From a virus (lineage: Duplodnaviria; Caudoviricetes), in IMG/VR virus record IMGVR_UViG_3300031787_000100, positions 2,214 to 66,213 of that record: 64,000 nucleotides of DNA. One strand, 5' to 3'. Positions within the stretch are counted from its first letter, which is position 1. The number at the start of each line of letters is the position of its first letter. This document shows, in pieces, positions 6,247 to 23,569 of this stretch. Both the position numbers and the translations under genes were made by a program. The notes under the pieces are model-generated. The model saw only the letters and a program-made list of their open reading frames with translations. It was not told where the DNA came from and did no database searches.

Positions 6247-6765
6247 TTATTTAACAAGGGGGCGTCTTCCGTTAACGGACCCCCACGGCCTGCGGTTGGC
6301 AATTTGTTCTTGCATGGTAGCCCATCGGCAGTTGTCCGGACTATAGCCTTTTGTATTGTCTATTCTATCTATGGAATGCCCAGTTGGTTTGGGTCCCATA
6401 TCTTCAAAGAAACATAGCCAGCCGGTCTTGCCGTTTTCCCCAAATCTCCAACGATCACATACAGATACCCCACGTCCACCATAAAAACTATACTTGGGAT
6501 GCTTTGGGTTATAGCATCTGCTCATCATGGATTTCCAAGACTGCTTGGTATATGTGCGGCGCTCCACATCGGCGGCTGTAACTAGTGCGGCACGAAACTC
6601 AGTTGCGTAACAACCACAGGATTTGGTAACTCCAGTCTTTAGCTTGAACCCTAGCACTACCGATGTATTGCCGCAGTCGCAAAGGCAGGTCCAGCGTGCA
6701 TTGGATTTTTTATCCCGGCTGTGTAAATTCTGCACAATTAATCTACCAAATCGTTGTTGTTCCAT
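6247..6765 (-). CDS. HNH-family endonuclease (Cys-rich type)
   Basis: RFGRL..W.C.CDCG..SCGC, RC.NP..YGGRG..C.RW, SIDRIDN.KGYSPDNCRWAT; AAGGA RBS. Confidence 0.8.
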   Translation of the reverse strand: MEQQRFGRLIVQNLHSRDKKSNARWTCLCDCGNTSVVLGFKLKTGVTKSCGCYATEFRAALVTAADVERRTYTKQSWKSMMSRCYNPKHPKYSFYGGRGVSVCDRWRFGENGKTGWLCFFEDMGPKPTGHSIDRIDNTKGYSPDNCRWATMQEQIANRRPWGSVNGRRPLVK

Positions 6766-6965
6766 AAGATTCCTTAGTGGGGGGTAGGGTGGGATTGTAC
6801 TTGATTTTTTATATTTTTGTTATAGGTTTAGTTTTATTTTGCTGCCAGAGGATTCAGCGCTCAGCGTAAAGCGGACGGGACTCCGTCAGCCCACAGCTTG
6901 GGGTGGCGGGGCGGTGGGGTCAAAACAGGGTCAAAAAAAGATAAGGTTATAACTAAAGATAAGTG

Positions 6966-6994
6966 TTGACAAACATTATAGTTTGATATACATT
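6966..6994 (+). promoter_or_regulatory. Sigma70-type promoter for the first early unit
   Basis: TTGACA-17 nt-TACATT, followed by hairpin ATCGGTTAAGC/GTTTAGCCGAT (7001-7028). Confidence 0.7.
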
Positions 6995-7059
6995 TCACCC
7001 ATCGGTTAAGCAATTCGGTTTAGCCGATATGTAAGTAAACGCTATTCAAAGGAAATGAA

Positions 7060-7599
7060 ATGGCACAATTCTCAAAACTTCATGCATCAATTATTGGTGC
7101 GTTCGCAACTGCTAAAGCTAAAGCTGAAAAGCTAGAAGCTGATAGCATCACAAAACAAAACGCTGAAATTCAGAAGTTAGTAGATGCTCACGTTTTGGCT
7201 TGCAGTACAACAAAAGCTGAGTATTTGAAGGGCAATTCAAAAACCAACGAAGCAAGGGGCGAAGTGAAAGCCTTATTTGATACGCTAGTATCAAAAGAGT
7301 ACATCAGCAAAAATTCAGCGCAACAGTATGCCCAATGTTTTTGGATAGCGTTCGAAACGAACGTGCCATTTTCCCGAGACCTTGTAAACAAAAAAGCTGA
7401 AGCTAAAGCTGAAGCAAATACAAAAGCTGAAGCTACCGCTAAAGCTGGAAAAGTAGAAGTTACCGATATGCCAGCTTTAACGCTGACATTACAAAAGGCT
7501 TTGCACCAATGCACCTTGTTGAATCAAACTTTGCTGAAGGGCGCTTTGCTTGATGCAATAGTTGAATTTATCCCTGATTTTACAGAATCAGCTAAGTAA
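7060..7599 (+). CDS. Hypothetical early protein (Ala/Lys-rich)
   Basis: 179-aa ORF with AAGGA RBS downstream of promoter. Confidence 0.8.
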   Translation: MAQFSKLHASIIGAFATAKAKAEKLEADSITKQNAEIQKLVDAHVLACSTTKAEYLKGNSKTNEARGEVKALFDTLVSKEYISKNSAQQYAQCFWIAFETNVPFSRDLVNKKAEAKAEANTKAEATAKAGKVEVTDMPALTLTLQKALHQCTLLNQTLLKGALLDAIVEFIPDFTESAK

Positions 7600-7613
7600 A
7601 AACCTAATCAACG

Positions 7614-7642
7614 GAAACCCTAGGGGAAACCCTAGGGGTTTT
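7614..7642. repeat. Tandem GAAACCCTAGGG palindromic element (third copy at 8042-8055)
   Basis: GAAACCCTAGGGGAAACCCTAGGGGTTTT; AAACCCTAGGGTTT at 8042. Confidence 0.75.
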
Positions 7643-7645
7643 AAA

Positions 7646-7831
7646 ATGAACAAATATTTTCACTATTCAAAAGCAAAACCCGAATCCGATGTTTTGACAT
7701 GGAAAATCTACAATGACCCTTTGGTTAACCGATGGAAAGTTGAATTTTCCGATGGGGAAACCCGTTCGTTCCGTCATGAAAAAGACGCACTCGCATACAT
7801 CAATGACAAGTTCTTTTCAATGTACTTTTAA
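7646..7831 (+). CDS. Hypothetical early protein
   Basis: ORF from ATG 7646 (MNKYFHY...); AGGGG from the palindrome could serve as RBS. Confidence 0.65.
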   Translation: MNKYFHYSKAKPESDVLTWKIYNDPLVNRWKVEFSDGETRSFRHEKDALAYINDKFFSMYF

Positions 7832-7842
7832 GGGTTAACATC

Positions 7843-8043
7843 ATGTCCGATTTTGTTGGAGTACTCACAATTTATACTTGGGTCAATGCACCAGAGGGTA
7901 AAAGGGGCAAAAGGTTAAACGTAAACAAAAGCCATTTTTGTGACACGTTCGAAATGGGAAAAGACCTTTTGAATCAATGGCGCGAAGCAAACCCCAGTAT
8001 TGAAATGCACGCTGAACTTGTCATTACCCGATACATTGACTAA
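7843..8043 (+). CDS. Hypothetical early protein
   Basis: 66-aa ORF with AAGGG RBS, ends just before terminator. Confidence 0.65.
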   Translation: MSDFVGVLTIYTWVNAPEGKRGKRLNVNKSHFCDTFEMGKDLLNQWREANPSIEMHAELVITRYID

Positions 8044-8060
8044 ACCCTAGGGTTTCCACT

Positions 8061-8086
8061 AAGCCACCGCAAGGTGGCTTTTTTTT
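8061..8086 (+). terminator. Intrinsic terminator
   Basis: AAGCCACC-GCAA-GGTGGCTT followed by T run. Confidence 0.9.
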
Positions 8087-8289
8087 CGCCCTGATTTTTT
8101 CCATGCGTGCGCTTCCATTGTCCGTTTGGAAAACGTCATAGTAGTTAGGCGGTGCGGGAGAGCGAGCGTGAGTGCGCGTGTGTGCGAGGGTGCGGGAGAG
8201 CTTCGGGGCAAAAACTTCCCAAAAGTTATAACCTTATAACTTTTACCCCACGGGCTGATGGCACAACTATGACGCAGGGAGAATGGCAT

Positions 8290-8710
8290 GCTTGTTACAA
8301 TGTAACAAAACACCCCCGATTTGTTACAAAACCCCGTAACGTTGTTTTTTTGCAAATAGCCCCGCAAAAGTAATACTAAGCGTTTCAAAAACCAAGAGAG
8401 AGAGATAGATATATATATAATATATTATATTGTTACATTGTAACGGTCTTTTTAGGTTATGAGAGTCAAATTCCCAAAACGTATAGTTCCCTTAATGGTT
8501 ACCCTGACGCTTATAGCAAACTAAAAGAAAAAGATTTTAGACCTTCATACCCCCAAATACCCTGTTACAGCGTAACCACGACCCATTTAACCCAAAAGCT
8601 ATACTATAAAATCGGCTAAGTTGTTGATTCGCAATGACCGACCTATAAACCCCCTCGTAACGACCCCCCTGTAACATTCCCCACCCGTTTCGTAACACCG
8701 TAACACGACC
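8290..8710. other. Candidate replication origin / protein-binding platform
   Basis: About a dozen GTTAC/GTAAC pentamers, including three GTTAC-N3-GTAAC palindromes, around a near-pure AT tract (~8405-8435); no credible gene. Confidence 0.45.
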
Positions 8711-8777
8711 CCCCCAAAGTTATAACCTTATAACTTCTGCTACACTACACACCTCCACACCAACCCAAGGACTTACT

Positions 8778-9236
8778 ATGACACAAGACCTCTACACCCT
8801 CGAATTGAACTTCCCCACCGAAGTTGCCGACCGACTTGCCAACTCACACAAAGACGGCATCGAAGCAGCCACCACACAAGCCATCAAGTTCTGGCTCCAA
8901 CTGGGCGACGACACATGGCAAACCATTGCCACACAAGCCAACACCGAAGGCATGTCACGGGCGGAGTTCGTACGCAAAGCCATTGCAAAACTAATGCACC
9001 CCGAAGCCCCCGCCTATGTAAACCTCAAATCAGACCTAACCCTTGCCGAACGACGCAAGGCACGAGATGAGGACATTGCATACCGCGCACTACGCGGAAC
9101 ACTACGCAGAGACCTTGCAACCCAATACGGCATATCAGAAATCAGGGTGCATCAGATCGTAGCTGCTGCAAAGAAAGAAATTGCCAAGGAAAAACTCAAG
9201 CGGGATTGGACTCCAGACCCATACGAAAACGCTTGA
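8778..9236 (+). CDS. Putative transcription regulator (RHH-like plus C-terminal Mor-like HTH)
   Basis: EGMSRAEFVRKAI (CopG/RHH-like helix) and RRDLATQYGISEIRVHQIV (HTH); AAGGA RBS; extended -10-like TGCTACACT at 8738-8746. Confidence 0.7.
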   Translation: MTQDLYTLELNFPTEVADRLANSHKDGIEAATTQAIKFWLQLGDDTWQTIATQANTEGMSRAEFVRKAIAKLMHPEAPAYVNLKSDLTLAERRKARDEDIAYRALRGTLRRDLATQYGISEIRVHQIVAAAKKEIAKEKLKRDWTPDPYENA

Positions 9237-9261
9237 CAACATACCTATAATCTGTTATAAT
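9233..9261 (+). promoter_or_regulatory. Consensus sigma70 promoter with extended -10
   Basis: TTGACA (9233-9238), 17-nt spacer ending TGT, TATAAT (9256-9261). Confidence 0.9.
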
Positions 9262-9267
9262 TGATTT

Positions 9268-9985
9268 ATCAAGTCGAGTAACGCCTCGGCTTGTTTAGTT
9301 CTTTAACAATTTATACATAGGTTTTTGTGTAGCTTATAAAGTTATAACCTTATAACTTTCGCCCAGTCCACATAGGGTACACAAAAAATGCAAGCCGTCG
9401 CTGTAAATACAGAAGCTCGATAGATTAGTGTCCAGTTCATACAAGAGTTGGTCGTATCCCGATGCCTCAATAGCCACCGCACCTCTTATGCGTGTTTCAT
9501 ATCCCATTCACTTGGGTTTCCCTGATTCCGAGAGTTTACTGTAAGTCCCCAAGGGCAGGTAGTGCCATGCCAGTTAGCTATTGTTGAGTAAAGATACCAA
9601 ACCGCCAAAGATGTAAGTTACTTTTCTTCCTCGTTTGAATAGACGTTGGGTTAAAGCCCCAGTATGTTGTGGTGTAGTTTCAATAGGCTAGTGTCAACGA
9701 AACGATAGCAACATGCAGCACTAACGCACACTACCTAAATGGGTGCAGTATTTGTATGCCAATCATACAAACTGCTCAGTGGAGTTTATGTAGCACCTCG
9801 GGTCGCTACCGCTAAGACAACCATGGGAACTGGAACTGACAAGGGTCAGGATATGCCAGAACGACAAACCCTATCGTAGTAAAAAAGCCAAATCAATCGA
9901 CGCACTACTCACGGCATTAGCCGTGTCAACAAGTTGTATTCAACTGGGAGGGGATACTGTCCCCTCTTGGGTGTGTACCACACCA
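9268..9985 (+). ncRNA. Candidate large structured ncRNA (~720 nt), family unassigned
   Basis: No ORF of 60 aa or more in the track; lies downstream of a perfect promoter; more than 10 nested complementary helices found by eye. Confidence 0.65.
9270..9333 (+). promoter_or_regulatory. rRNA-operon-like antitermination leader (boxB hairpin, boxA, boxC-like)
   Basis: Hairpin CAAGTCGAG/CTCGGCTTG, then GTTCTTTAACAATTTAT (9298-9314), then TGTGT. Confidence 0.7.
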
Positions 9986-10017
9986 AACCTATAACCTTAT
10001 AACTTTGGGAGATCACC

Positions 10018-10227
10018 ATGGGACTTGAGAAAGTAGTACTTAACAAACTAAAAGAGGTTGACCCTCACCTGCAAGCTAGCTTCTACAACGGCACATTGTT
10101 TATCGACAACGAGCCGAACCTTGACACGCTGACTATCTATCGCATCAACAACGCAGTCAAAAGCGTAGTCACATGCCCCATACAGATCAGCAAAAACCGC
10201 GACGAGATCGCTATAGATTTTCTTTAA
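10018..10227 (+). CDS. Hypothetical early protein
   Basis: Repeat plus GGAG RBS directly upstream. Confidence 0.75.
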   Translation: MGLEKVVLNKLKEVDPHLQASFYNGTLFIDNEPNLDTLTIYRINNAVKSVVTCPIQISKNRDEIAIDFL

Positions 10228-10259
10228 ACCTAACCCTAACTTTAAGACTGGAGAATGAT

Positions 10260-10499
10260 ATGAAAGTGTCCGAACTAATCGCAGAACTGGAGTGCTACGA
10301 CGGTGATGCCGAAGTACACATGGCATACGGTGCTGGTGACTACTGGCGTACAACGCTAGCCCCAAGGGTAAGCCGAACCTTTCAAGGTACGGTGCAGAAG
10401 TCTGAGTATCACCAGACCGACCGCTTGTATGAACGTGACCTCGACGAGCCTGAGGATGAGGAAGACGAACCCATTCGTCAAGTTGTGGTGATTGAGTAA
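10260..10499 (+). CDS. Hypothetical early protein (acidic C-terminus)
   Basis: MKVSELIAELE... start after GGAG RBS. Confidence 0.75.
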   Translation: MKVSELIAELECYDGDAEVHMAYGAGDYWRTTLAPRVSRTFQGTVQKSEYHQTDRLYERDLDEPEDEEDEPIRQVVVIE

Positions 10500-10529
10500 C
10501 TTATAACCTTATAACTTTTGGAGATGCAA

Positions 10530-10682
10530 ATGATTGAAACCAGTTACACAGAGACAAGACACTACATCTTGCTCAAGAACCTACTCATTGCTATTGCCAA
10601 TGACCGTGATGCCCTGCGCATCATGGCTACCAAAAAAGAAATGGCAGAAGCCGTAGCTGCAATGAAACATTTGTGGGAGTGA
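10530..10682 (+). CDS. Small hypothetical protein (50 aa)
   Basis: Hand-translated MIETSYTETRHY...MKHLWE; repeat plus GGAG RBS upstream. Confidence 0.65.
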   Translation: MIETSYTETRHYILLKNLLIAIANDRDALRIMATKKEMAEAVAAMKHLWE

Positions 10683-10684
10683 GT

Positions 10685-10906
10685 ATGACCCACTATCACC
10701 TGCCGATCTGCACTTGTTGTTACGCAGAACGGATACCCCCTGCCCGAGCTTCGCTCGGTTACAAAACATGCCTGTCATGTGGCGAGATACAAGCCAAGAC
10801 ACGCAAGCACACCATCGTGCCTATGCCTAAGTCCAACTACATCGTAGTGACTGACCGCAATTTATTGAAGGGGCTTAACTCATCACACAAGGGAGGGGCT
10901 ATGTAA
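10685..10906 (+). CDS. DksA/TraR-like C4 zinc-finger protein
   Basis: CTCC-YAERIPPAR-ASLGYKT-CLSC matches the CxxC..IPxxR..CxxC pattern. Confidence 0.65.
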   Translation: MTHYHLPICTCCYAERIPPARASLGYKTCLSCGEIQAKTRKHTIVPMPKSNYIVVTDRNLLKGLNSSHKGGAM

Positions 10907-11154
10907 TGGCAATCGTTCATGGGAAACACCGAGCGCAATACCAGTGGTATCAATACGCATATAAAACATGGGCTTACGAAATACCGAAACCTGACTTGTA
11001 TGCCCATGATGTACTGCGTGTTGGGTATTCATCCGAAATAGACGGGTGGAAAATCTTTATAAATCACATCGAGGCGGGACAAGCCTCAACACTCGAAGAA
11101 GCCAAGACATTGGCAATCATGCTGTACAAACTGCACCCCGACTGGGGACACTAA
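10906..11154 (+). CDS. Hypothetical early protein
   Basis: 82-aa ORF coupled to upstream stop (TAATG); GGAGG RBS. Confidence 0.7.
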   Translation: MAIVHGKHRAQYQWYQYAYKTWAYEIPKPDLYAHDVLRVGYSSEIDGWKIFINHIEAGQASTLEEAKTLAIMLYKLHPDWGH

Positions 11155-11208
11155 CTCAACCCTAAACAAACAACAAACCTATAACCTTATAACTTTTGGA
11201 GAAACACA

Positions 11209-11967
11209 ATGAGCATGTACTCAAAACTTTCAATGCACTTATCACGTCACATGTATAAGCGTGGCAAGAACAAGGGTAGCGCCCCTGCCAATGCACATAG
11301 GCGTGGCATGGATCACTTCAGAGTGGTCAAGGGTAACGACGACACAATGCGTATCCGCATGTGGAGTACCGACATTATTACCGCTTACCCCAATGGCGAT
11401 GTGAAGATCGACACCAACGGATACTACACACATAACACAACAATCATTCGGCTCAACGAAGCGTTTGGTTTCTTCGAGGGTGTGGGCGTGGGTATGGGTA
11501 AGCGTAGCATCTACAGTTATTCACAACCTGTGCTTCGGGTGGGCGTTAAACTTTATTATTACTATGACGGCATCACACTCAATGCCCAAGGCGAAGTCAT
11601 CACGCCACTTCAAGCGTTTGAGCAGAAACGTGTAGATAAAGCAGCGACTAAAGAACTAGCCGTTGACCTAAAAGAGTCAGGGTTTGCCGATGCGTTCAAT
11701 CTACTGTATGCAGTAGCTACACCCGATGATATGGAAACCGATAACTACGGGATGTTTGGTGTACGACTCCCCGATGCTTTGTCTGACTCTGCCCGAGCCG
11801 ACACATGGAAAATGATTATCGCTCGCAACAAATTCCAACGTGAGTACGCATATCCGCAGTACCAATACGTAGAGAAATCAAATGCAAAAGCATGTTGGGC
11901 AACCATCATGGCTGCATGCAAAAAGAACATGTACATTGTGTCTCGCTCTGAGACCTTTGTCTTGTAA
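11209..11967 (+). CDS. Hypothetical early protein
   Basis: 252-aa ORF preceded by repeat and GGAG. Confidence 0.8.
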   Translation: MSMYSKLSMHLSRHMYKRGKNKGSAPANAHRRGMDHFRVVKGNDDTMRIRMWSTDIITAYPNGDVKIDTNGYYTHNTTIIRLNEAFGFFEGVGVGMGKRSIYSYSQPVLRVGVKLYYYYDGITLNAQGEVITPLQAFEQKRVDKAATKELAVDLKESGFADAFNLLYAVATPDDMETDNYGMFGVRLPDALSDSARADTWKMIIARNKFQREYAYPQYQYVEKSNAKACWATIMAACKKNMYIVSRSETFVL

Positions 11968-12030
11968 ACGTGGCGTAAGCCAACTTAAGTAAACTTATAA
12001 CCTTATAACTTTCAATCCAAGGAAATCAAA

Positions 12031-13098
12031 ATGCAATTGTCTGTAAACCTCAAACAAGCAGCTACTCTCATTCGCAATGTGGGTACAACAAACACAATCC
12101 TACTGCGGGGTCAGCCCGGTGTAGGTAAGTCATCTATTCTTGCAACACTAGGCAAGGAACTACCTGACTATCACGTTTGCTACATCGACTGTGCAAACTT
12201 AGACCTCGGTGACTTGGCTATGCCTGTCATTGACCGAGAGAACATGACCACATCGTATGCACCCAATGTGCGCTTCGGTGTAGGTAAGAATCAGACTCGA
12301 CCCGTCATACTTATGCTTGACGAGTTGGGTAAAGCATCACGCCCTGTGATGAACATGTTGTTGCCGACTATCCTTGAGCATCGTGTAGGTGATGTGCAGT
12401 ATCGTACTGGGTCAATCATCTTAGCAACAACCAACCTAGATACAGATGGTGTGGGTGACAATATCCCTGCCCATGCCTACAACCGCATGACTGTGGTGAA
12501 CCTAGCCAACCCAACAACTGAGCAGTGGCTCGAGTGGGCATCGGACAACAACATTGCCCCCGAAGTTATGGCATTTGCTAAGCAGTATCCGCAAGTGTTC
12601 GACTGCTATGTAGACCTTGACCCCAAGGCTAAGAACCCCTACATCTTCAACCCATTGACGGGCAACGTGAAAGCATACTGCTCGCCTCGTTCACTCGAGA
12701 AAGCATCTAACATTATCAAGATGCGTCATGTATTGGGTGATGCCTTGTTGCCTGCATTGGCGGGTACTGTGGGTGAAGCAGCAGCTAGGGATATGGATGC
12801 ACTCATTCACTTGGCAGATCAGTTGCCTTTGTTCGAGAACATCGTGAAGGAACCATTCAAGGCTAAGGTTCCAAGCAGTGCGGGTGCGTTATTCATTCTC
12901 GCCTTTATGTTGGCAGGTCGTGTCGATGCTAAGACTATCGACGCAGTGATGGACTACTCAGATCGTATGGCTAACGAATCATTCGAGGCACATGCACTCT
13001 TTATCACATCACTTGCATCCAACAAAGCCAAGGTAGGTATGGCATGCGGTAGCCGTAAGTTCACGACCCAAGCAGCCAAGCTTGGTAAGTTCTTCTAA
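12031..13098 (+). CDS. MoxR-like AAA+ ATPase
   Basis: Walker A GQPGVGKS, Walker B ILMLDE, sensor ATTN, SPRS motif; vWA partner downstream. Confidence 0.85.
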   Translation: MQLSVNLKQAATLIRNVGTTNTILLRGQPGVGKSSILATLGKELPDYHVCYIDCANLDLGDLAMPVIDRENMTTSYAPNVRFGVGKNQTRPVILMLDELGKASRPVMNMLLPTILEHRVGDVQYRTGSIILATTNLDTDGVGDNIPAHAYNRMTVVNLANPTTEQWLEWASDNNIAPEVMAFAKQYPQVFDCYVDLDPKAKNPYIFNPLTGNVKAYCSPRSLEKASNIIKMRHVLGDALLPALAGTVGEAAARDMDALIHLADQLPLFENIVKEPFKAKVPSSAGALFILAFMLAGRVDAKTIDAVMDYSDRMANESFEAHALFITSLASNKAKVGMACGSRKFTTQAAKLGKFF

Positions 13099-13118
13099 AC
13101 TTATAAGGTTATAACTTT

Positions 13119-13208
13119 ATGTTTACACCTTGGGAACGCTTCGAGCGTTTTATCTTAGTCCTAGCACTCATTGTGCTAGCCCTTGACCTCTACTACTGGA
13201 GACCATGA
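13119..13208 (+). CDS. Small membrane peptide (29 aa)
   Basis: Hand-translated MFTPWERFERFILVLALIVLALDLYYWRP; TAAGGT within the repeat as possible SD. Confidence 0.55.
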   Translation: MFTPWERFERFILVLALIVLALDLYYWRP

Positions 13209-13381
13209 TGCTTATCGTAGAACGAACATCTAACGGGCAGACCATCGTCGTCATTAAGAAAGATTGGCATCCCAATCGAATCAGCAAGGCGTACCAACGC
13301 CCACTGCCTAACCATGTGCAGTCAAATGATGCATGGAATTTACAAACCGCATTACTAAACAAACTAAGGAAACCATCATGA
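13205..13381 (+). CDS. Small hypothetical protein (58 aa)
   Basis: Hand-translated MMLIVERTSNGQ...; ATGA overlaps at both ends; GGAG RBS. Confidence 0.6.
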   Translation: MMLIVERTSNGQTIVVIKKDWHPNRISKAYQRPLPNHVQSNDAWNLQTALLNKLRKPS

Positions 13382-13977
13382 GAAATATGTACGAACTCGC
13401 AAGACAACTGCAGTCCCCCGGTGTAGTCACCACGGCATACTTTAACCCAACTCGTTTGACTAAGTCGCTACGCAACCTTGCTCGTAAGAGCATTGCGTCA
13501 GGCAAGCATAGCGGTGGGTGGTCAAGTCAAACAAAGAAAGTGCGCAACCTTATCTTTAAGTTAGCGGGTGAAGCACCTGTGATACACGCTAAGCCTGAGC
13601 ATGGACCGTATGTATCTTTTGTAGCACCACGCCCTATACCTCATAGCGTTCAGAATGAGATGATTGGACTGCTCGAGGCGGACTGCTCGTTGACTAAGAT
13701 GAACTTCGAGACAGAGAAGAAGAACTACTACAAGATCACATACGATGAGTTTGTAGAACGAGTTGATGATACTTTTGTTACTAACATGAAACGTTTGCAA
13801 GAGGTGGGTGGTAGCACGCACTACTCAATCATAATCCGCAACAAACCAATACGAGAGCAGGTAGTTGACTTGTTTCTTACATTGCGAACCTCTGATGAGG
13901 TGGCATTGGCTGAGCGCATAGCTTCGCTACTAGATGAGAATCGAGAGTTTCTCATCCCATTGGACTACAACTTTTGA
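13378..13977 (+). CDS. Hypothetical protein
   Basis: ORF; start at 13378 chosen from AAGGA RBS. Confidence 0.75.
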   Translation: MRNMYELARQLQSPGVVTTAYFNPTRLTKSLRNLARKSIASGKHSGGWSSQTKKVRNLIFKLAGEAPVIHAKPEHGPYVSFVAPRPIPHSVQNEMIGLLEADCSLTKMNFETEKKNYYKITYDEFVERVDDTFVTNMKRLQEVGGSTHYSIIIRNKPIREQVVDLFLTLRTSDEVALAERIASLLDENREFLIPLDYNF

Positions 13978-14011
13978 AAACTTATAACCTTATAACTTTT
14001 GGAGAAATCAA

Positions 14012-15184
14012 ATGAACGTATCAGATCGAATCAAGAAAGCGCACATCGCTATCATGCAACACAAAAAGTTCTGTGTGTATAGCGGTATCCTTGCGTGTGG
14101 CAAGGTGCATGTCAACAACGACGTACCTACCGCAGCTACTAACGGTTGGGATGTTATCTACAACCCTGCCTTCATCGAGCAACACATGAAGACCGACCCC
14201 GAGTTGCGCTTCCTCATCTTGCATGAGGGTCAGCACAAAGCGTATCGTCACTTGCAAGTATGGACTGCATTGCACGACGAGGATGCTCAGTTGGCTAACA
14301 TCGCAGCAGATCACTTCGTTAACTTATCCTTAGTGGATATGGATGACGGTGAGGGGTTCATCAAGATGCCTGAGTTAGGTGTGCAACCTGATGCCAAGTA
14401 TCGTGGGTGGTCAGTCAAGCAAATCTTCGAAGACCTCAAGCAAGAGGAAGAAGAAGGCGGGGGTGGTGGCGGTGGCGAAGGTGGCAATGGGTTCGATGAG
14501 CATGACTGGGCTAATGCAACAAGCGGTGACCCTGCTAAGGATGCCGAGCGTGGCAATGAGATACAACGAGCCATTCGTCAAGGCGAGATCGTGCGTCGCA
14601 AGATGCAAGGCAAGGGTGCAGGCGATGCAGATGGTGCGTTCGGTGAGTTGTTGCAACCCAAGATCGACTGGAAGAAAGTCTTGCGTGACTTCATCACCGA
14701 GACATGTGCGGGTCGTGACGAGTCCTCATGGCGTAAACCTAATCGTAGATTTTTGAGCTACGACGTTTACATGCCCTCTATGGTGGGGACTACTATGACA
14801 GAGCTTGTCATCGGGTTCGACACGTCGGGTTCATGTTTCGGTGGCGATGAAATGACTGCGTTTGTTTCCAACATCAAGACCATCATTGAAGAGGTCAAGC
14901 CAACCAAGACACACGTCATCTATTGGGACACTCAAGTAGCAGGGCATCAAACATTCGAGGATGGTCAGTTTGCCGTAGCCGACATGAAACCCAAGGGCGG
15001 TGGTGGTACAGATGGTTCTGTGTTGTTTGAATACTTGCGTGAACACCGTATCAACCCACAAGCTATTGTGCAGTTTACCGACGGCTACGTAGGTGATTGG
15101 GGTAACACCAATGTGCCTACCTTGTGGGCTATCACAACCGATGTGGTTGCACCATTCGGTACGACGATTCGTGTCGAAGTTTAA
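14012..15184 (+). CDS. Metallopeptidase-like plus vWA domain protein (DUF2201-like)
   Basis: TAATNG, HEGQH (HExxH), ANIAAD, MIDAS DTSGS, GGGTD, FTDGY. Confidence 0.85.
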   Translation: MNVSDRIKKAHIAIMQHKKFCVYSGILACGKVHVNNDVPTAATNGWDVIYNPAFIEQHMKTDPELRFLILHEGQHKAYRHLQVWTALHDEDAQLANIAADHFVNLSLVDMDDGEGFIKMPELGVQPDAKYRGWSVKQIFEDLKQEEEEGGGGGGGEGGNGFDEHDWANATSGDPAKDAERGNEIQRAIRQGEIVRRKMQGKGAGDADGAFGELLQPKIDWKKVLRDFITETCAGRDESSWRKPNRRFLSYDVYMPSMVGTTMTELVIGFDTSGSCFGGDEMTAFVSNIKTIIEEVKPTKTHVIYWDTQVAGHQTFEDGQFAVADMKPKGGGGTDGSVLFEYLREHRINPQAIVQFTDGYVGDWGNTNVPTLWAITTDVVAPFGTTIRVEV

Positions 15185-15216
15185 AACTTATAACCTTATA
15201 ACTTTTGGAGAAAACC

Positions 15217-15582
15217 ATGGGATATAGATCAGATGTGCAGGCACTTATTTACCCTGCGAACGGTGACACTAACTTGTTGGAGTACGACAAGCTCAAAACG
15301 CTAATGAACACCACGTTTAAGGATATGTTGGATACATGGGGCGATTACTTTGATTGGAATGACCATCATCGTGTACTCCAGTTTACCGCTAACTCTATTA
15401 AATGGTACGACAGCTACCCCGATGTGGCTAGGTTTACTAAGTTTTTGGAGGAGGTGCGCGACCTTGAGTACGAGTATGAGTTCATTCGTATTGGCGAGGA
15501 TGACAACGATGTTGAGTCCGATAGCACAGGCGATGCCGAGAACTTTATGTACGTAGAACGAACCATACAGGTGAATTTATGA
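15217..15582 (+). CDS. Hypothetical protein
   Basis: MGYRSDV...KWY...FIRIGED; repeat plus RBS upstream. Confidence 0.75.
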   Translation: MGYRSDVQALIYPANGDTNLLEYDKLKTLMNTTFKDMLDTWGDYFDWNDHHRVLQFTANSIKWYDSYPDVARFTKFLEEVRDLEYEYEFIRIGEDDNDVESDSTGDAENFMYVERTIQVNL

Positions 15583-15857
15583 AATTCAAGTTAACTATCA
15601 ACGGGCATCACGTATTGGTGGATGCAGGGCAACTCCAAATCCTTACAGATACTCTGTCGTTTGCCGAACACCTAACCGAAACTCACGTTGGGCACAACAT
15701 GGGGTCACAAGGGTATCAGAACGCATACGTACCGGCTATCAAGCCAGTCGTAACACACGAGCTATTCACTGTAGCACCAGTGAACCAAGACTACATCGAC
15801 ACAATCAAACTGACGATGAAGCTAAATGACACATCAACCATGCAAGTAACAACCTAA
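15579..15857 (+). CDS. Hypothetical protein
   Basis: 92-aa ORF overlapping upstream stop. Confidence 0.7.
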   Translation: MKFKLTINGHHVLVDAGQLQILTDTLSFAEHLTETHVGHNMGSQGYQNAYVPAIKPVVTHELFTVAPVNQDYIDTIKLTMKLNDTSTMQVTT

Positions 15858-15887
15858 AACTTATAACCTTATAACTTTGGAGAAACC

Positions 15888-16814
15888 ATGAACTACTACA
15901 CAATCGAAACAGAAAAGCCTATCGCAGGCGTCGCACGTTCCGCCATGATGGTGGACTTAAACATCGCAGTCTACTCGGGTCGCAAGCAAGACAAGAGTAC
16001 GCAAGCCGAGGTCACCAATGCCAAGGGGTCAGGCTCCAAGAAAGCAGCGTCGGTGTACAAGAACTTGTTTGCTGAGTGCAAAGAGTTGGAAGCTATCACC
16101 AAGTTCCAAGCCCGTGCCCGAGCCGAACACTATCGCTTGACGCTTCCTTGGAATGACCAAGGTGCAAGACTGTTGCCCACTGCAGCCCTGCTTGAGTATC
16201 AGAAGACTATGGGTAGGCATAACACAGAGTTCAATCGCTTGGTCGATGCGTTCTTGGACAAGTACGAGACACTCGTAGCAGGGGCAGCGTTCCAACTCGG
16301 CACATTGTTTGATCGCAACGAGTACCCAAGCAGGGGCAAGGTGGCTCAGCGTTTTCGTATGGAGGCATCGTTCACTCCCTTGCCTACTGGCGGTGACTTC
16401 CGACTTGATGTGGAGAGCGAGGTACAACGCAACCTGATCGCCCAATACGAAGAGAAGCTCGATGCTAAGTTGAAGGCAGCGAACCAAGACTCATGGACTC
16501 GTTTGTATAACGCTATCAGTAAGTTGAGTGATCGCTTGACTGTGGATGAGGATGGCAAGAAGCGTACGTTCCACGACACAACGGTGACCAATGCCGTTGA
16601 CTTGTGTGAGTTGTTGCAGGTCATGAACATTACCAACGACCCTGCGTTGACGAAAGCTTCACGTAAGCTTGAGGAAGTATTATCTGGCATAACACCTAAG
16701 GAATTGCGGGAAGAAGATAGCACTCGTGCTTTAACCAAGATCAAGGTGGATGAAATCCTTGGTGCATTTGATTGGGGGATAAATGATGGGGAAAGTGAAG
16801 GCGATGGTAACTGA
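15888..16814 (+). CDS. Helical hypothetical protein (DUF3150-like, tentative)
   Basis: 308 aa; TLPW..GARLLP and F...YP motifs; context with AAA/vWA genes. Confidence 0.55.
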   Translation: MNYYTIETEKPIAGVARSAMMVDLNIAVYSGRKQDKSTQAEVTNAKGSGSKKAASVYKNLFAECKELEAITKFQARARAEHYRLTLPWNDQGARLLPTAALLEYQKTMGRHNTEFNRLVDAFLDKYETLVAGAAFQLGTLFDRNEYPSRGKVAQRFRMEASFTPLPTGGDFRLDVESEVQRNLIAQYEEKLDAKLKAANQDSWTRLYNAISKLSDRLTVDEDGKKRTFHDTTVTNAVDLCELLQVMNITNDPALTKASRKLEEVLSGITPKELREEDSTRALTKIKVDEILGAFDWGINDGESEGDGN

Positions 16815-17145
16815 GATTATGGAAGTAGCAGACAGGCATGGGCGAGCTAAGTCAGACGCCCTTCGAATGCTAGAACATAAACTTGGATACCACAAAGACA
16901 ATCCTATGTACGAATGTAGATACGAAGAACGTGGGCTTGACTACACGCTAAAGAAATGGCGTGACGGACACGAGGAAGCATCTCGTGGACTGGTAACAGA
17001 CCTACCTGATTGGCTAGAGAGAATCAGGGATGTGGCGACGGTGGGTGGGCATCTTAAGAAAGTGAACGTGCCTCCCCCTGACAACATCGTATGGTTCACT
17101 ATCGACGACGATGGAAATTTAATTAACTTTATGGAACTTACATGA
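16783..17145 (+). CDS. Hypothetical protein
   Basis: ORF within the operon. Confidence 0.7.
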   Translation: MMGKVKAMVTEIMEVADRHGRAKSDALRMLEHKLGYHKDNPMYECRYEERGLDYTLKKWRDGHEEASRGLVTDLPDWLERIRDVATVGGHLKKVNVPPPDNIVWFTIDDDGNLINFMELT

Positions 17146-17315
17146 ACTATGACAACTTGACCGATGAGGAACTAATCCGTTTTGCCGATGGGCATACGGG
17201 TTTAATCAAAGTCTTATCTGAAAGGTTGGAGATGCGGTTGCGTGACATGGAGGATTTATCACGCACCATGCCTGACCCCAAACAACTTAACCTATTCGAG
17301 GATGACGATGCCTGA
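17142..17315 (+). CDS. Small acidic protein ending in clamp-binding-like QLNLF motif
   Basis: Hand-translated 57 aa MNYDNLTDEELIRF...PKQLNLFEDDDA; ATGA overlap with upstream gene. Confidence 0.65.
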   Translation: MNYDNLTDEELIRFADGHTGLIKVLSERLEMRLRDMEDLSRTMPDPKQLNLFEDDDA

Positions 17316-17859
17316 CATACAAACAGAAATGCAAAAGATATTGCAAGCTTGGGAACAACCCGAAACAACTGAAACAACTAAGGAAACAACAGTGTTTAAA
17401 CCTACAAACAACGTAACAAAAGAAACCTTTAACTTTATTCGAGACAACTCCGGTTGCGCTCGAAACGATGCAATCCGAATCCTTGTAGCGCAAGGGCATA
17501 AGAAATCATCTGTGTCATCTTTGCTTGGACAGATGCTACGCCAAGGGCATATCTACAAGGATAGCGACGGCTTGCTACGCCCCAATGGTAAAGAGTACAC
17601 ACCCATCAAATCTTCTAAGACGCTTGCTAAGCGAGAAGCTAAGGTGAAGAAACCAAAAAGTTATAAGGTTATAACTTCTAAGCCAAGTCAAGAGGCATTG
17701 GGTTTAGCTGCATTGGTGAACGAGCCAATAGCTAAAGCGTTCAATCACCAACCTGACATTCGTACAAACATCGACATTATCATGGATACGATTAGCCTCA
17801 ATGATGCCCACGAGTTGTATCGTCGCTTGCACTTGTACTTCGGTGGCTTGGGTAAATGA
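17308..17859 (+). CDS. Hypothetical protein with possible winged-helix domain
   Basis: TFNFIRDNSGC.R..KKSSVSSLLGQMLRQGHIYK resembles a wHTH. Confidence 0.55.
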   Translation: MPDIQTEMQKILQAWEQPETTETTKETTVFKPTNNVTKETFNFIRDNSGCARNDAIRILVAQGHKKSSVSSLLGQMLRQGHIYKDSDGLLRPNGKEYTPIKSSKTLAKREAKVKKPKSYKVITSKPSQEALGLAALVNEPIAKAFNHQPDIRTNIDIIMDTISLNDAHELYRRLHLYFGGLGK

Positions 17860-18050
17860 GATCAAAAGCCATATTGGAGTTTGATTACCCCGACGATGAG
17901 GATGCGTTACTGTTCGCATTGAAGGGGCAAGCTATGTATAAGGCGCTGGCAAGTATCAAGATGGTTATGTCTGCACCTTATACAAAGGCTGAGATGGTCA
18001 GCCAAATCAAAACTGTACTCAACGAAATATTTGAGGAGTTGGGTGAATGA
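17856..18050 (+). CDS. Hypothetical protein
   Basis: Overlapping ORF, KAILEF motif. Confidence 0.65.
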   Translation: MRSKAILEFDYPDDEDALLFALKGQAMYKALASIKMVMSAPYTKAEMVSQIKTVLNEIFEELGE

Positions 18051-18235
18051 AGCCCAATGCTAAACGCATTACGATACCGGTGTCCGAGGGCATTGATAAG
18101 ATACGAGATCAACTGTCTGCGGATACTGGCATCAAGATGACATACAACCAAGTGCTTGACTACCTGATTCATTTCTATTTAGTACGCACTCAACAACCTG
18201 ACGCACCACGAACACAATGGAGGAAATTAAAGTGA
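18047..18235 (+). CDS. Small hypothetical, possibly RHH-like protein
   Basis: KRITIPVS then helices ending MTYNQVLDYLI. Confidence 0.55.
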   Translation: MKPNAKRITIPVSEGIDKIRDQLSADTGIKMTYNQVLDYLIHFYLVRTQQPDAPRTQWRKLK

Positions 18236-18336
18236 CTTGGCCCTTCCCCCCATTCCCAAACCCCAAGGACAAGGGCAACCGAGTCCCTAAGTTCAACCCT
18301 GATAACCACGAGGATGCACCGGTATGCGACAACTAA
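18232..18336 (+). CDS. Small Pro-rich peptide (34 aa)
   Basis: Hand-translated GTG start, MTWPFPPFPNPK...; GGAGG RBS. Confidence 0.5.
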   Translation: MTWPFPPFPNPKDKGNRVPKFNPDNHEDAPVCDN

Positions 18337-18515
18337 GCGAAACAACCGCAAGGCAAACCATAGGCATGATGCGCTCAATCGCTAGCCACGTACCAATCAG
18401 CCCATTTCATTTGCAAGCAGCCAAAGATATGGAACAATTACTGGAAGAAGTTTTGAAATACCGAAAGGAAAAGAAAGATGAAAAACCCACGCGTAATAAT
18501 TTACACAAGGGATAA
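18324..18515 (+). CDS. Hypothetical protein
   Basis: ORF within the operon. Confidence 0.6.
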   Translation: MRQLSETTARQTIGMMRSIASHVPISPFHLQAAKDMEQLLEEVLKYRKEKKDEKPTRNNLHKG

Positions 18516-18726
18516 CTGCCCGAACTGTGAGATAGCCAAACGTATTCTTTCGACTGCGAACATTGAATACATAGACGTCGACATCATGCTAGGCAACCGA
18601 TTGCAAAACTTTCTAGCGGAGTATCCTGATGCCCGTCAGATGCCTCAAATTTTTATCAACGACCAACGTGTTGGTGGTGTTGAGGGTCTGAAGGTTGCGT
18701 TACGCCAGTTGGGGATACTGCAATGA
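18478..18726 (+). CDS. Glutaredoxin
   Basis: IYTRDNCPNC active site, RQMPQIFI..RVGG. Confidence 0.9.
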   Translation: MKNPRVIIYTRDNCPNCEIAKRILSTANIEYIDVDIMLGNRLQNFLAEYPDARQMPQIFINDQRVGGVEGLKVALRQLGILQ

Positions 18727-19178
18727 TTAACAGTTATGCGCACAGTGGATTTCTAAAGCCCGATGTTGTAGATGCAAAGGGTTTTGGGTGGAAGGTAGAA
18801 ACAATCACTAAGTTTGCCGCAAACGAACTAACGCTAGAAACAGGAACAAATTTAACACGGAGAGCTAAAGATATGTCAACAGATTACGAAACCGCAACCA
18901 AGATTGCCGATGACGCAAGCAAGATGTTCAAGAAAAGTTACAGCGATTTAATTGAAACAACGGCACAGCTACAAACATCAACTAAAAAAGTATCAGGTGA
19001 TATTCGCAAATCAGCCGATGATTTAGCGCAAGGGTTACTGAAGGTGCAGAAGCAGGCGGACTTTAACAACCTGACACGATACGTTGAGTTGCTTGAGAGG
19101 GCAGCTACTGCCATGACTACGCTAGCTGACCTAGAGAAGGCAGGGAAACTGCAAAAGATTGCGGGTGCGCTGAAATGA
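18723..19178 (+). CDS. Hypothetical coiled-coil protein
   Basis: ORF within the operon; start uncertain. Confidence 0.65.
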   Translation: MINSYAHSGFLKPDVVDAKGFGWKVETITKFAANELTLETGTNLTRRAKDMSTDYETATKIADDASKMFKKSYSDLIETTAQLQTSTKKVSGDIRKSADDLAQGLLKVQKQADFNNLTRYVELLERAATAMTTLADLEKAGKLQKIAGALK

Positions 19179-19450
19179 AAGTTTTAGATTTAGTAAGGTA
19201 TGACCCTGATAAAGGATGCTTCGTTATGAAAGACAATACACCCCCGCGTGTGTTCAACCCATGGGAAGAGTTAGCGCAAGTTGACCGCCCTAGCATCTTT
19301 CTAAAAGATGTTTACTTCCGTGCCAAAGGTGCGGGAACCCTTGAGAGTGAGAAGGGTCTAGGCTACAAACAATTTGGCACTTACACCAAAGCACGACAAC
19401 CAAACAAACACGAAAGGTCACCCGAAGATGCCAAGACCAAAGCCCCCTGA
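19175..19450 (+). CDS. Hypothetical protein
   Basis: ORF within the operon. Confidence 0.6.
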   Translation: MKVLDLVRYDPDKGCFVMKDNTPPRVFNPWEELAQVDRPSIFLKDVYFRAKGAGTLESEKGLGYKQFGTYTKARQPNKHERSPEDAKTKAP

Positions 19451-19619
19451 GCCATTGATAGGAAGACAGATACGAATGTCTGACAGACAGTGGATTATTT
19501 TTAATCAGCTTGGCGGTGCCGAATGGTTACGTACCATCATCACCAAGAAAGCCCCGATGCCCAAGCAGTACTATGACGCACTACTACAGGAGAAACCAAA
19601 TGATTCAAAGAGCCGATGA
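19428..19619 (+). CDS. Small putative DNA-binding protein
   Basis: MPRPKP..RQIRMSDRQW..LGGAEWLR. Confidence 0.55.
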   Translation: MPRPKPPEPLIGRQIRMSDRQWIIFNQLGGAEWLRTIITKKAPMPKQYYDALLQEKPNDSKSR

Positions 19620-19815
19620 CACGCAAATTGGCGGGTCGCATTACAAAGACAAAACCATACAGCCATGGGACTACATCATTGCCAACGACCTTGGGTATCT
19701 CGAGGGTAACGTGGTGAAGTACATATCCCGTTGGAAAAACAAAAACGGTGTTGAAGACTTGAAGAAAGCCCAACATTACTTATCCAAACTAATTGAGGTG
19801 GCAAATGGAAAATAG
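19600..19815 (+). CDS. DUF3310 (SaV-like) protein
   Basis: QIGGSHY..IQPWD..GNVVKY..R..KNG.EDLKKA.HYL. Confidence 0.8.
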   Translation: MIQRADDTQIGGSHYKDKTIQPWDYIIANDLGYLEGNVVKYISRWKNKNGVEDLKKAQHYLSKLIEVANGK

Positions 19816-20293
19816 AATGATAATGCGGGACGCTTGGGGTCGCACGATTGCCGGTGACGGGGGGCACTGCCCTATATGTGATCGGTGGGGCAAGATATAC
19901 ATCCGCAACATTAACAAAACAATGGCACAAGGTTTGGTGTGGCTGAACCATCAAACTGGCGATGAGGACGGTTGGGTAAACGTTCCCGTAAAGGGGCCAC
20001 AATGGTTGGTGCGATCTAACCAACTGGCTACGTTGCACTGGTGGAACCTTGTGGAACGCAAAAGCAAAGACGACTCACACAAGTCCAAGTTCTCAGGCAT
20101 CTGGCGTACTACACGGTTAGGTAAAGAATTTGTGGCGGGGCTGATACGTGTCCCACGTAGCGTGTACACATACAACAACACGGTTGTTAAACACGGGGAT
20201 GAAGAAGTGCTACTCAGTGAATGCCTCGACGAGGGGTTCGATTACAACCAAGTTATGAGTACCAATCTACATGGCAGCAACACCCGAATCTAA
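19805..20293 (+). CDS. Hypothetical protein with CxxC
   Basis: GHCPICDR; ORF within the operon. Confidence 0.65.
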   Translation: MENRMIMRDAWGRTIAGDGGHCPICDRWGKIYIRNINKTMAQGLVWLNHQTGDEDGWVNVPVKGPQWLVRSNQLATLHWWNLVERKSKDDSHKSKFSGIWRTTRLGKEFVAGLIRVPRSVYTYNNTVVKHGDEEVLLSECLDEGFDYNQVMSTNLHGSNTRI

Positions 20294-20570
20294 AGTAAAA
20301 GCCAAGATCAAAGCAATCTTGAAAGCCCACGGAGCTTACTACGCCATGCCTATTGGCACTGGCTACGGCAACAGTGGTGTGCCTGACTTCCTAGTGTGCC
20401 ACGGTGGTGAGTTTCTTGCCATTGAAGCCAAGGCGGGGAAGGGCGTGCCTACTGCATTGCAATACAAAAACCTAGACGCCATCCTGACCGCAGGGGGCAG
20501 GGTGCTAGTCATCAACGAAGATGAACTCAAACGAGGTACCCTCGAAGCCACATTAGATAGGATGTTATGA
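20271..20570 (+). CDS. VRR-NUC / PD-(D/E)XK nuclease (resolvase-like)
   Basis: PESKVK, GVPDF, AIEAKA, TALQ. Confidence 0.8.
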   Translation: MAATPESKVKAKIKAILKAHGAYYAMPIGTGYGNSGVPDFLVCHGGEFLAIEAKAGKGVPTALQYKNLDAILTAGGRVLVINEDELKRGTLEATLDRML

Positions 20571-22465: not shown

Positions 22466-22506
22466 TTGGTACACTAGGGCTTGCAAAAACAAACCCAGTT
22501 CTTTCC

Positions 22507-23172: not shown

Positions 23173-23446
23173 ACGAAACTATAAGCAAGAATACGAACGG
23201 TATCAGGGTACGCCTAAACAGTTGGCTGCCCAATCCGAAAGACACAAAGCTAGACGGGCATACGAGAAGGAGCATGGCACTCTGCCTGACACCGTAGACG
23301 TAGACCATAAGAAGGCTATGTCCAAAGGCGGTACGTCTAAACTAAGCAATCTACGTGCCTCACCGCAGTCTGAAAACACAAGCTTTTCCCGTACCAAAAC
23401 TGGTGCGCTGAAGTCACAAATTTCTAAGCGAGAGCGTAAAAAATAA
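23162..23446 (+). CDS. Small HNH endonuclease-like protein
   Basis: DVDHKKAMSKGG...SNLR...N. Confidence 0.75.
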   Translation: MATKRNYKQEYERYQGTPKQLAAQSERHKARRAYEKEHGTLPDTVDVDHKKAMSKGGTSKLSNLRASPQSENTSFSRTKTGALKSQISKRERKK

Positions 23447-23518
23447 TGTAAGATGAAATCACTTAGCGGTTGCCACTTCTAAGTTGTTTCATTTGGTTCT
23501 CCTCCCAGTAATGGGTTT

Positions 23519-23548
23519 GCCCAGTAGCAGTGCTACTGGGCTATTTTT
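23519..23548 (+). terminator. Terminator-like hairpin upstream of helicase
   Basis: GCCCAGTAGC-AGT-GCTACTGGGC then TATTTTT. Confidence 0.65.
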
Positions 23549-23569
23549 GTCAACTCTATTCAAATTTAT

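Follow-up and report, generated by a model that had tools for sequence, protein, structure and literature searches.

A 64,000-nucleotide (nt) stretch of DNA, hereafter the window (positions 2214-66213 of the 66,213-nt virus record IMGVR_UViG_3300031787_000100, which is rated complete), carries a region that is a real structured non-coding RNA and not a chance fold. We consider it probable that positions 9233-9880 are the gene for a non-coding RNA of ~610 nt that belongs to an uncatalogued family of a freshwater phage clade, that its boxA leader loads host Nus factors, and that its core is a stable RNA. No open reading frame (ORF) is conserved in the region, and RNA libraries contain the element in contigs that do not reach beyond the RNA. 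As judged from sequence comparison, its first ~70 nt show the order and sequence of a bacterial ribosomal RNA (rRNA) operon leader, with a hairpin, a boxA and a GU-rich helix strand following one another. The boxA leader is an element of a known kind; the RNA behind it matches no catalogued family.

The genome is that of a tailed phage in which genes for a terminase, a portal protein, a DNA polymerase, a primase-helicase and a helicase were identified; its nearest cultured relatives, as found via the terminase, are the Pelagibacter phages HTVC027P and HTVC023P (~43% identity). A preliminary description of the window had proposed a multi-domain RNA at 9268-9985, situated in a gene-free interval behind the best-consensus promoter of the genome, and both features of this setting are confirmed. 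No ORF of at least 60 amino acids (aa) is present on either strand between 9237 and 10017, the interval being bounded by genes that end at 9236 and start at 10018. The sigma-70 promoter (9233-9261, + strand) combines the -35 element TTGACA (9233-9238), a 17-nt spacer, a TG at 9253-9254 and the -10 element TATAAT (9256-9261), and it is immediately preceded by an A-rich stretch. It is the only 12/12 match in 6500-19000 and one of two exact TTGACA-N16-18-TATAAT sequences in the window, the second of which, at 25113, is without TGn. From the geometry of the promoter, transcription is predicted to start at the A at 9268 (+ strand), 7 nt after the -10 element. A regular expression consisting of the -10 element and a 5' hairpin found a promoter upstream of 48 of 55 family members; inspection by eye of the remaining seven revealed contig-end cuts or TACAAT/TAGAAT variants of the -10 element.

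Homologs, consensus structure and transcripts

The family was assembled from seven related phage contigs, found with the upstream protein as query, and from searches with two conserved strings of the region, to which IMG/VR contributed 11 and 25 stretches and metagenome contigs 32. R1, a covariance model built from the 3' core with 113 positions, matches once per source in 55 of 56 sources. The one remaining source, a 20-mer match from a metagenome (L052), was judged to be due to chance and was rejected as a family member; it is purine-rich, carries neither promoter nor boxA, and reaches only 22.7 bits. After removal of identical copies, 37 distinct full-length RNAs from uncultured phage contigs remain, ranging in length from ~380 to 700 nt; these are not 37 independent events, because several loci represent one contig present in two collections and many stem from related lake samples. 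The genomic position of the RNA is kept, after a gene for a 152-aa regulator-like protein and before early/replication genes, while the genes directly 3' of it vary among loci. At the DNA level, the RNA of locus L010 is 97% identical to that of the window versus 87-92% for its flanks, and that of L014 is 98% identical versus 77%; in L024 the RNA is 93% identical and the upstream protein only 40%. A blastn search of 9200-10020 against 50,697 GenBank phage records gave no match. A scan of 185,579 representative bacterial genomes for the core 20-mer found 0 stretches, and therefore no prophage copy among these genomes; on a contig of a metagenome-assembled Nanopelagicaceae genome (L100), the boxA 20-mer is present and the core absent.

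As the preliminary description had led one to expect, the region folds better than shuffled controls: the + strand of 9268-9985 reaches -209.5 kcal/mol, an energy matched by 0 of 20 shuffles (z = -4.16), and the - strand has a z-score of -2.05. Covariation among the homologs is likewise found. On a MAFFT alignment of the 37 RNAs, 49 pairs are formed in 96.0% of cases versus 85.6 ± 0.5% in column shuffles, and 28 of them changed on both sides versus 13.5 ± 2.0, with 0 of 500 shuffles as high in either respect, although the relatedness of the sequences inflates this shuffle test. When the partners were slid by one to three columns as a control, 33-43% were paired. Because G.U or U.G is the commonest pair at several positions (27/37, 19/37 and 18/38) and would be an A.C mismatch on the other strand, the structure is placed on the + strand. 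The minimum-energy fold of the single sequence 9268-9882 contains 34 of the 80 comparative pairs.

The consensus architecture, all of it on the + strand, runs from a 5' hairpin (P1) via an optional second hairpin, which is absent in the window and present in most relatives, and a single-stranded motif to P3 with its palindrome hairpin, followed by P4, P5, P6, P7, a junction and the closing helices P11a and P11b, which enclose P8, P9 and P10. In P1 (9270-9293), all eight counted pairs change on both sides, and 93.5% of the cells are paired. P3 (9322-9387) is formed by 9322-9331 with 9378-9387, a helix already contained in the preliminary description and upheld by the homologs; its five counted pairs are 96.0% paired and vary by G.U wobble only, and 7-10 of its 10 pairs are retained across the nine RNAs of the long form. 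It encloses the palindrome hairpin AAAGTTATAA-CC-TTATAACTTT (9338-9359), in which four of five counted pairs change on both sides. The 5' strand of P5 (CGUC, 9396-9399) has a long-range partner at 9642-9645; these 4 base pairs are formed in 37/37 RNAs, with GC 34/AU 3 and UA 21/CG 16 at the two variable positions. P4 (9401-9412), a CUG-loop-CAG hairpin, is paired in 29/29 aligned rows, with eight rows misaligned by MAFFT counted as gaps, and longer covarying stems are visible as well.

The first half of the 3' core (9634-9745; 119.4 bits with R1) comprises GAAUAGACGU, which holds the 3' strand of P5 (9642-9645), the helices P6 (9647-9650 with 9658-9661) and P7 (9662-9670 with 9708-9716), and the invariant junction ACGCACACUACCUAAAUGGG. 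In a model-based alignment, the 13 pairs of P6 and P7 together are 96.8% paired versus 78.5% in shuffles, and nine of them changed on both sides. The preliminary description had also been right about the hairpins at 9745-9775 and 9790-9809, which are P8 and P9 of the family structure. P8 consists of an outer GCAG/CUGC helix (9745-9748 with 9772-9775), whose four pairs all change on both sides, and an inner helix (9751-9758 with 9764-9771); P9 (GUAGC/GCUAC) has GUGGC/GCCAC variants in L017, L026 and L053 and belongs to a 48-nt block restricted to the 155-nt version of the 3' core, which occurs in the family in versions of about 106, 155 and 200 nt. P10 (9830-9859) pairs CUGG (9830-9833) with CCAG (9856-9859) in the pair types CG 23/GC 12, UA 24/AU 10 and GC 28/CG 10, and three of the four pairs of its inner hairpin (9836-9840 with 9845-9849) change on both sides. 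The 3' strands of the closing helices lie at 9869-9879, where P11b joins CCC (9869-9871) to GGG (9741-9743) and P11a joins GUAG (9876-9879) to CUAC (9731-9734); both are paired in 37/37 RNAs, with a single compensated change (CG to GC in L016). Like P3, P11a and P11b barely vary among the homologs. For the second half of the core as a whole, 96.8% of pairs are formed versus 78.6% in shuffles and 11 of 19 pairs changed on both sides; its both-side changes were matched by 12 of 500 shuffles and its pair types by 92 of 500.

Insertions in the family are modular, sit at the tips of helices and differ among members. The long-form insertion domain (9413-9633, + strand; 220 nt) is found only in nine RNAs, those of the window and eight others, whereas the remaining members have 33-110 nt or a different insertion at this place. 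Variation across the nine carriers is too small for a structure test; one local hairpin covaries, from CCAGUUC/GAGUUGG to CAGUUC/GAACUG in L056. In different phages, two unrelated places of the RNA are occupied by a recurring hairpin module that has the loop motif CCACCUAC/CCACCUAU. It forms the second 5' hairpin of L018, L036 and L071 and an insertion in the 3' core of L054, L049, L043 and L016, and these phages may share it as a module for protein binding or for tertiary contacts.

The long-range pairing put forward in the preliminary description fares differently from its local helices. The complementary segments it listed are present in the window, with 9/10 pairs for 9417-26/9891-900, 8/8 for 9431-38/9827-34, 6/6 for 9503-08/9738-43, 8/8 for 9557-64/9729-36, 5/5 for 9573-77/9721-25, 10/10 for 9322-31/9378-87 and 6/6 for 9511-16/9548-53. 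The five long-range pairs among them were checked on the nine long-form homologs, and since most are not kept there, the pairing model is for the most part wrong. For the outermost pair (9417-26/9891-900), 9/10 is attained in the window alone, the other homologs having 0-7/10, and 9573-77/9721-25 is complete (5/5) in only two of the nine. Pair 9431-38/9827-34 is reduced to 5-6/8 in four of the nine, where its 3' side changes from CUGG to CACG without compensation, the change being compensated within the local helix P10 instead. The invariant GGG of 9503-08/9738-43 pairs with CCC 9869-9871 in 37/37 RNAs, and most members are without 9503-08. Only 9557-64/9729-36 is kept to some degree (8/8 in seven of the nine), and it competes with P11a, which is paired in 37/37.

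Nor does the RNA extend to 9985; its 3' limit lies nearer 9880. The stretch from 9880 to 9990 (+ strand) is a variable tail whose hairpins (9910-25, 9948-66 and 9970-84) have no U-tract and are replaced by other hairpins in related phages, and a terminator scan of 9880-9990 reported none. Six freshwater metatranscriptome runs contain part of the stretch, four of which, from four studies, were compared on 6500-14500; the runs were selected using the same stretch, and the data are assembled contigs. Because one 594-nt RNA contig (depth 13.8, no loose ends) covers 9277-9870 over its whole length, the RNA is taken to span ~9268 to ~9880. The end of this contig at 9870 falls at the closing helix, and the mature RNA probably has its 3' end in that helix, at 9869-9879. 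RNA contigs of the other three studies cover 9282-9631, 9405-9555 plus 9539-9717, and 9335-9606, respectively. The 5' ends at 9277 and 9282, from contigs of two studies without loose ends, lie just inside the predicted start at 9268 and give a weak hint in its favor; 9880-10580 is not covered by any RNA contig, nor does any contig connect the RNA with the next gene, an absence that is uninformative either way. Covariation across the 37 homologs, the lack of a conserved ORF and the region-confined RNA contigs in four studies bear out the proposal of a structured multi-domain RNA. The additional epithets 'abundant' and 'early' find little support and go beyond the evidence, given that contigs are no basis for ranking expression and that this same stretch had served to select the runs.

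The suggestion that the RNA might represent a new class has held up. Rfam 15 at gathering score gave 0 matches in the whole window, including none to small- or large-subunit rRNA, and there were 0 matches at E<=10 in 9100-10100 and at E<=1 in ten divergent homolog loci; a search with ARAGORN for tRNA and tmRNA also returned 0. None of the covariance models of GOLLD, ROOL, HEARO, OLE, raiA, 6S RNA, RNase P RNA, tmRNA or group I and II introns matched in these Rfam scans. In the literature, where the main text of a survey of IMG/VR (PMC10690425) was consulted apart from its supplementary lists, we found no description of this RNA and none of a large phage RNA gene headed by an rrn-style leader. 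According to its main text, that survey lists in its supplements 8,495 IMG/VR candidate RNAs of 29-151 nt, among which fragments of the RNA may be present. GOLLD, ROOL and other large bacterial non-coding RNAs are described as having been found through comparative analysis of environmental sequence (10.1101/2024.12.08.627333). The RNA studied here resembles GOLLD/ROOL, HEARO, OLE and raiA in its size of several hundred nt, its many covarying helices, its association with phages and its unassigned function; it differs from them in having no match to their covariance models. We know of no GOLLD, ROOL, HEARO, OLE or raiA RNA with an rrn-type leader.

The boxA leader

The preliminary description had missed the rrn-type boxA leader, which is the sole part of the element that can be assigned to a mechanism. 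Leaders of rrn operons are described in PMC10250234 as having the order boxB-boxA-boxC just after promoter P2, with boxA being necessary and sufficient for the antitermination complex and boxC providing the 5' strand of the leader-trailer helix. The boxA-like motif of the phage RNA, GTTCTTTAACAA (9298-9309, + strand), is single-stranded in that no consensus pair touches it, and G.TCTTTAA.AA is invariant or >=90% conserved in the 37 RNAs. A 15-mer containing most of it, TCTTTAACAATTTAT (9300-9314), is identical to the leader of Escherichia coli rrnH, and in L045 this identity amounts to 21 nt; E. coli K-12 rrnH carries GCTCTTTAACAATTTATCAG after promoter P2, and the boxA there is GCTCTTTAACAA. 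A family hidden Markov model run against the 5.9-kb E. coli rrnH operon matches only the leader boxA (E 6e-4) and the boxA of the 16S-23S spacer (E 0.39), and leader and spacer are the two boxA places that PMC10250234 gives for rrn operons. Multiple copies of the family-consensus 20-mer, from which the window departs at two positions, are present in Pasteurellaceae and in some further Gammaproteobacteria; in the two Pasteurellaceae loci that could be checked, the 20-mer precedes the 16S gene by 168 and 171 nt. Within the family, boxA starts 40-104 nt after the -10 element in 27 distinct leaders; eight further rows (six distinct sequences), missed by the regular expression, have variant motifs at the same place when inspected by eye. 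The hairpin P1 lies 5' of boxA in the position of the rrn boxB, and a GU-rich, boxC-like segment, UUUUUGUGUA (9322-9331), which is the 5' strand of P3, begins 12 nt after boxA. The window contains two exact matches to GTTCTTTAACAA versus 0.08 expected; the second (34941-34952, + strand) lies antisense within an ORF of 2059 aa (29962-36141, - strand).

Known systems with a boxA offer both parallels and differences. Like the rrn leaders, the element combines a strong sigma-70 promoter, a hairpin, a boxA and a GU-rich helix strand, followed by a large structured untranslated RNA; in contrast to them, its product is not rRNA and has no likeness to the rrnH operon beyond boxA, and the element is phage-borne and followed by protein genes. 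Between promoter A3 and gene 0.3 of T7, an exact GCTCTTTAACAA is found at a distance of 63 nt downstream of the promoter position. T7 is likewise of the lytic type, and host polymerase transcribes its early operon starting at strong sigma-70 promoters, but no large conserved structured RNA lies behind its boxA, and gene 0.3 starts ~100 nt later. A search of the 66-kb genome for a T7-type RNA polymerase (PF00940) gave no match, a weak negative since the control genomes also gave none. The nut sites of lambdoid phages are described as containing boxA (PMC10250234, PMC2800207). As with nut and put sites, cis-acting RNA signals that make host polymerase termination-resistant would lie shortly after an early promoter here; in lambdoid nut sites, however, boxA comes before boxB and the protein N is needed, whereas the hairpin precedes boxA in the phage RNA, with a palindromic hairpin also present ~30 nt after boxA. 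No N-like protein turned up, and no search aimed at N-like arginine-rich proteins was made. The put site of HK022 has a length of ~70 nt and is not known to contain a boxA, and neither nut nor put possesses a conserved core of 300-600 nt.

Proposed mode of action and alternative explanations

In the mechanism that we propose, boxA on the nascent transcript would bind host NusB-NusE(S10), and together with NusA, NusG and SuhB this would convert host RNA polymerase into a fast, Rho-resistant antitermination complex of the rrn type, which would shield ~600 nt of untranslated RNA from Rho. With its 5' end tethered to the polymerase, the RNA could form its long-range helices (P5 and P11) and fold its core co-transcriptionally, in the manner suggested for 16S rRNA; on rRNA, Nus factors chiefly serve RNA folding (PMC5725501). 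The complex would probably stay on the polymerase into the early/replication operon, which follows without a terminator, the next consensus promoter on the + strand after the RNA being that at 25113. The core (P4-P11) would be left as a stable RNA ending at the closing helix. Its invariant unpaired stretches and the insertions tolerated at its helix tips suggest a protein-binding or catalytic platform, and our best guess is an action on a host factor, with the core as a protein-binding scaffold or a decoy.

A bolder version of this proposal, which we put forward tentatively and hold to be possible at most, regards the element as a 'pseudo-rRNA gene', i.e., as a large functional RNA of a new class for which the machinery that transcribes and folds rRNA in the host is borrowed via a copied boxB-boxA-boxC leader and whose core acts in trans, as a ribonucleoprotein scaffold, decoy or catalyst, on a host factor. 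Such an RNA would be made fast, Rho-proof and correctly folded, and its retained boxA would possibly soak up NusB-S10 and thereby starve the rRNA operons of the host.

Several points weigh against our interpretation of the element as the gene for a stable RNA with a Nus-loading leader. The structure was derived from the same sequences as those counted, and the identity of the RNA among otherwise diverged phages could stem in part from recent exchange of this module and not from selection alone. Neither strand nor level nor true ends can be read from the RNA contigs, and the libraries may contain carried-over DNA. Function is ascribed to boxA from its likeness in sequence, and the phage host may have a different boxA of its own. 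P1 bears no sequence likeness to the E. coli boxB. With the boxC published for Enterobacteriaceae, UCUGUGUGGG, which is situated a fixed short distance 3' of boxA, the boxC-like strand agrees only in part, in the form of UUUGUGUA, and the strand with which it pairs is found 45 nt away and not beyond the RNA product.

The location directly behind the main early promoter, the boxA, the early genes that follow at once with no terminator at the end of the element, and the absence of another consensus + strand promoter before 25113 would all suit a long 5' leader that acts in cis on the early operon; it would serve antitermination, in the manner of a nut or put site of larger size, or the control of downstream translation and would release a core without function. 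We regard such a leader as unlikely, since known antitermination signals are far shorter (boxA has ~12 nt and put ~70 nt), the unpaired stretches of the core are more conserved than the neighboring proteins, and the RNA stays while the genes that follow it differ among loci; as a weak hint in the same direction, one RNA contig stops at the closing helix and does not run into the next gene. Compensatory changes taken alone would fit hairpins in single-stranded DNA just as well, and a replication origin, packaging site or recombination hotspot with an incidental transcript could be imagined for an element that adjoins the iteron-rich and AT-rich stretch 8270-8720 and carries the genome-wide palindrome. 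Such a function at the DNA level is nevertheless highly improbable in view of the G.U pairs, which dominate several positions on the + strand only, of the consensus promoter and RNA-acting boxA conserved at the head of the element, of the contigs from RNA libraries that match its limits, and of the iterons, which lie outside it.

There is likewise but a very slight chance that the RNA is a diverged representative of a known class (group I or II intron, RNase P RNA, tmRNA, 6S RNA, GOLLD, ROOL, HEARO or OLE). Insertions at helix tips are typical of large modular RNAs, and Rfam models can miss distant relatives; against this stand the empty Rfam and ARAGORN searches, of which the former covered the window, 9100-10100 and ten divergent loci, and a gene context without flanking exon, reverse transcriptase or nuclease gene. 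A small protein, with the structure being incidental, would be scarcely credible. The longest ORF of the window in this region (46 aa) starts from an invariant ATG at 9739 and retains its 46 aa in 13/37 homologs, but in 24/37 the frame stops after 5-31 codons, and the longest ORFs lie at differing places across the homologs. In addition, the lengths of insertions and deletions are not divisible by three, the changes compensate each other in pairs, and none of the short ORFs, whose conservation had been named beforehand as an argument against an RNA gene, is conserved among the 37 homologs.

To our knowledge, few classes of bacterial or phage non-coding RNAs larger than ~400 nt are known, and each of them has opened new biology. 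The RNA described here has an unusually clear structure from comparative analysis, there is evidence that it is transcribed in lakes, and an rRNA-type boxA leader on a phage RNA gene provides a mechanistic handle. Should this leader function in the way of rRNA operon leaders, lytic phages would co-opt host Nus factors and SuhB to transcribe and fold a large RNA of their own, and the same factors would also drive an early operon of 15-20 kb. The element would then represent a natural system for Nus-assisted RNA folding outside the ribosome.

Repeats and genes around the RNA

The near-palindrome AAAGTTATAA-CC-TTATAACTTT found within P3 is repeated across the early region, with 26 matches at <=3 mismatches, versus 0.49 expected, that span 6935-24051. 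Copies are located at 8222-8243, 8716-8737, 9338-9359 (the copy in the RNA), 9991-10006, 10503-10518, 11181-11196, 11997-12012, 13984-13999, 15190-15205, 15863-15878 and 17657-17678, and most of them end 10-41 nt ahead of the start codons of early genes. The intergenic copy next to the RNA is part of a segment (9991-10017, + strand) in which the palindrome is followed by GGGAGA and then by the start codon of the next gene (10018). Related phages have a different palindrome sequence, and the copy within their RNA changes in step with the intergenic copies of the same contig; moreover, the palindrome sits at the tips of different RNA helices in different phages. It could be bound by a phage-specific factor, serve as a hairpin for RNA processing or represent a small palindrome that is mobile. 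The early cistrons of T7 are separated by RNase III hairpins, of which the palindromes ahead of each early gene are reminiscent.

The 152-aa regulator-like protein (8778-9236, + strand) is always encoded upstream of the RNA, and its identity across loci ranges from 31 to 84% while the RNA is conserved. Its N-terminus has a weak HicB-like/ribbon-helix-helix match (PHROG E 2.8e-4), and its C-terminus weakly resembles a helix-turn-helix of the Mor/sigma-70 region 4 type (Pfam Mor E 0.0011, below the cut-off). The protein was considered as the binder of the palindrome and dropped as a candidate, since its identity does not track the palindrome type: with 40% identity, the L024 protein goes together with the same palindrome, and with 81% identity, that of L012 goes together with a different one. 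A few hundred nt 3' of the RNA, a 77-aa CxxC...CxxC protein is encoded (10673-10906, + strand) that is kept in most loci, divergent ones included; its assignment as a DksA/TraR-type factor was abandoned, as it belongs to no Pfam or PHROG family.

Upstream of the regulator gene, 690 ORF-poor nt (8090-8778) follow a terminator at 8061-8080. This region contains GTTACA/TGTAAC iteron-like repeats at 8292-8306, 8430-8444, 8562-8576 and other positions as well as an AT-rich run (8395-8440), is bracketed by two copies of the palindrome, and is a candidate replication origin; similar GTAAC repeats are found upstream of the RNA of L057. The second exact consensus promoter of the window (TTGACA-16-TATAAT, 25113-25140, + strand) is located at the end of the helicase gene, ahead of a gene at 25234; there is no boxA downstream of it, and it may be a middle promoter. 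The 2059-aa protein encoded at 29962-36141 (- strand) carries an LPD38 domain near its C-terminus (Pfam E 1.7e-27) and is probably an injected polyvalent protein.

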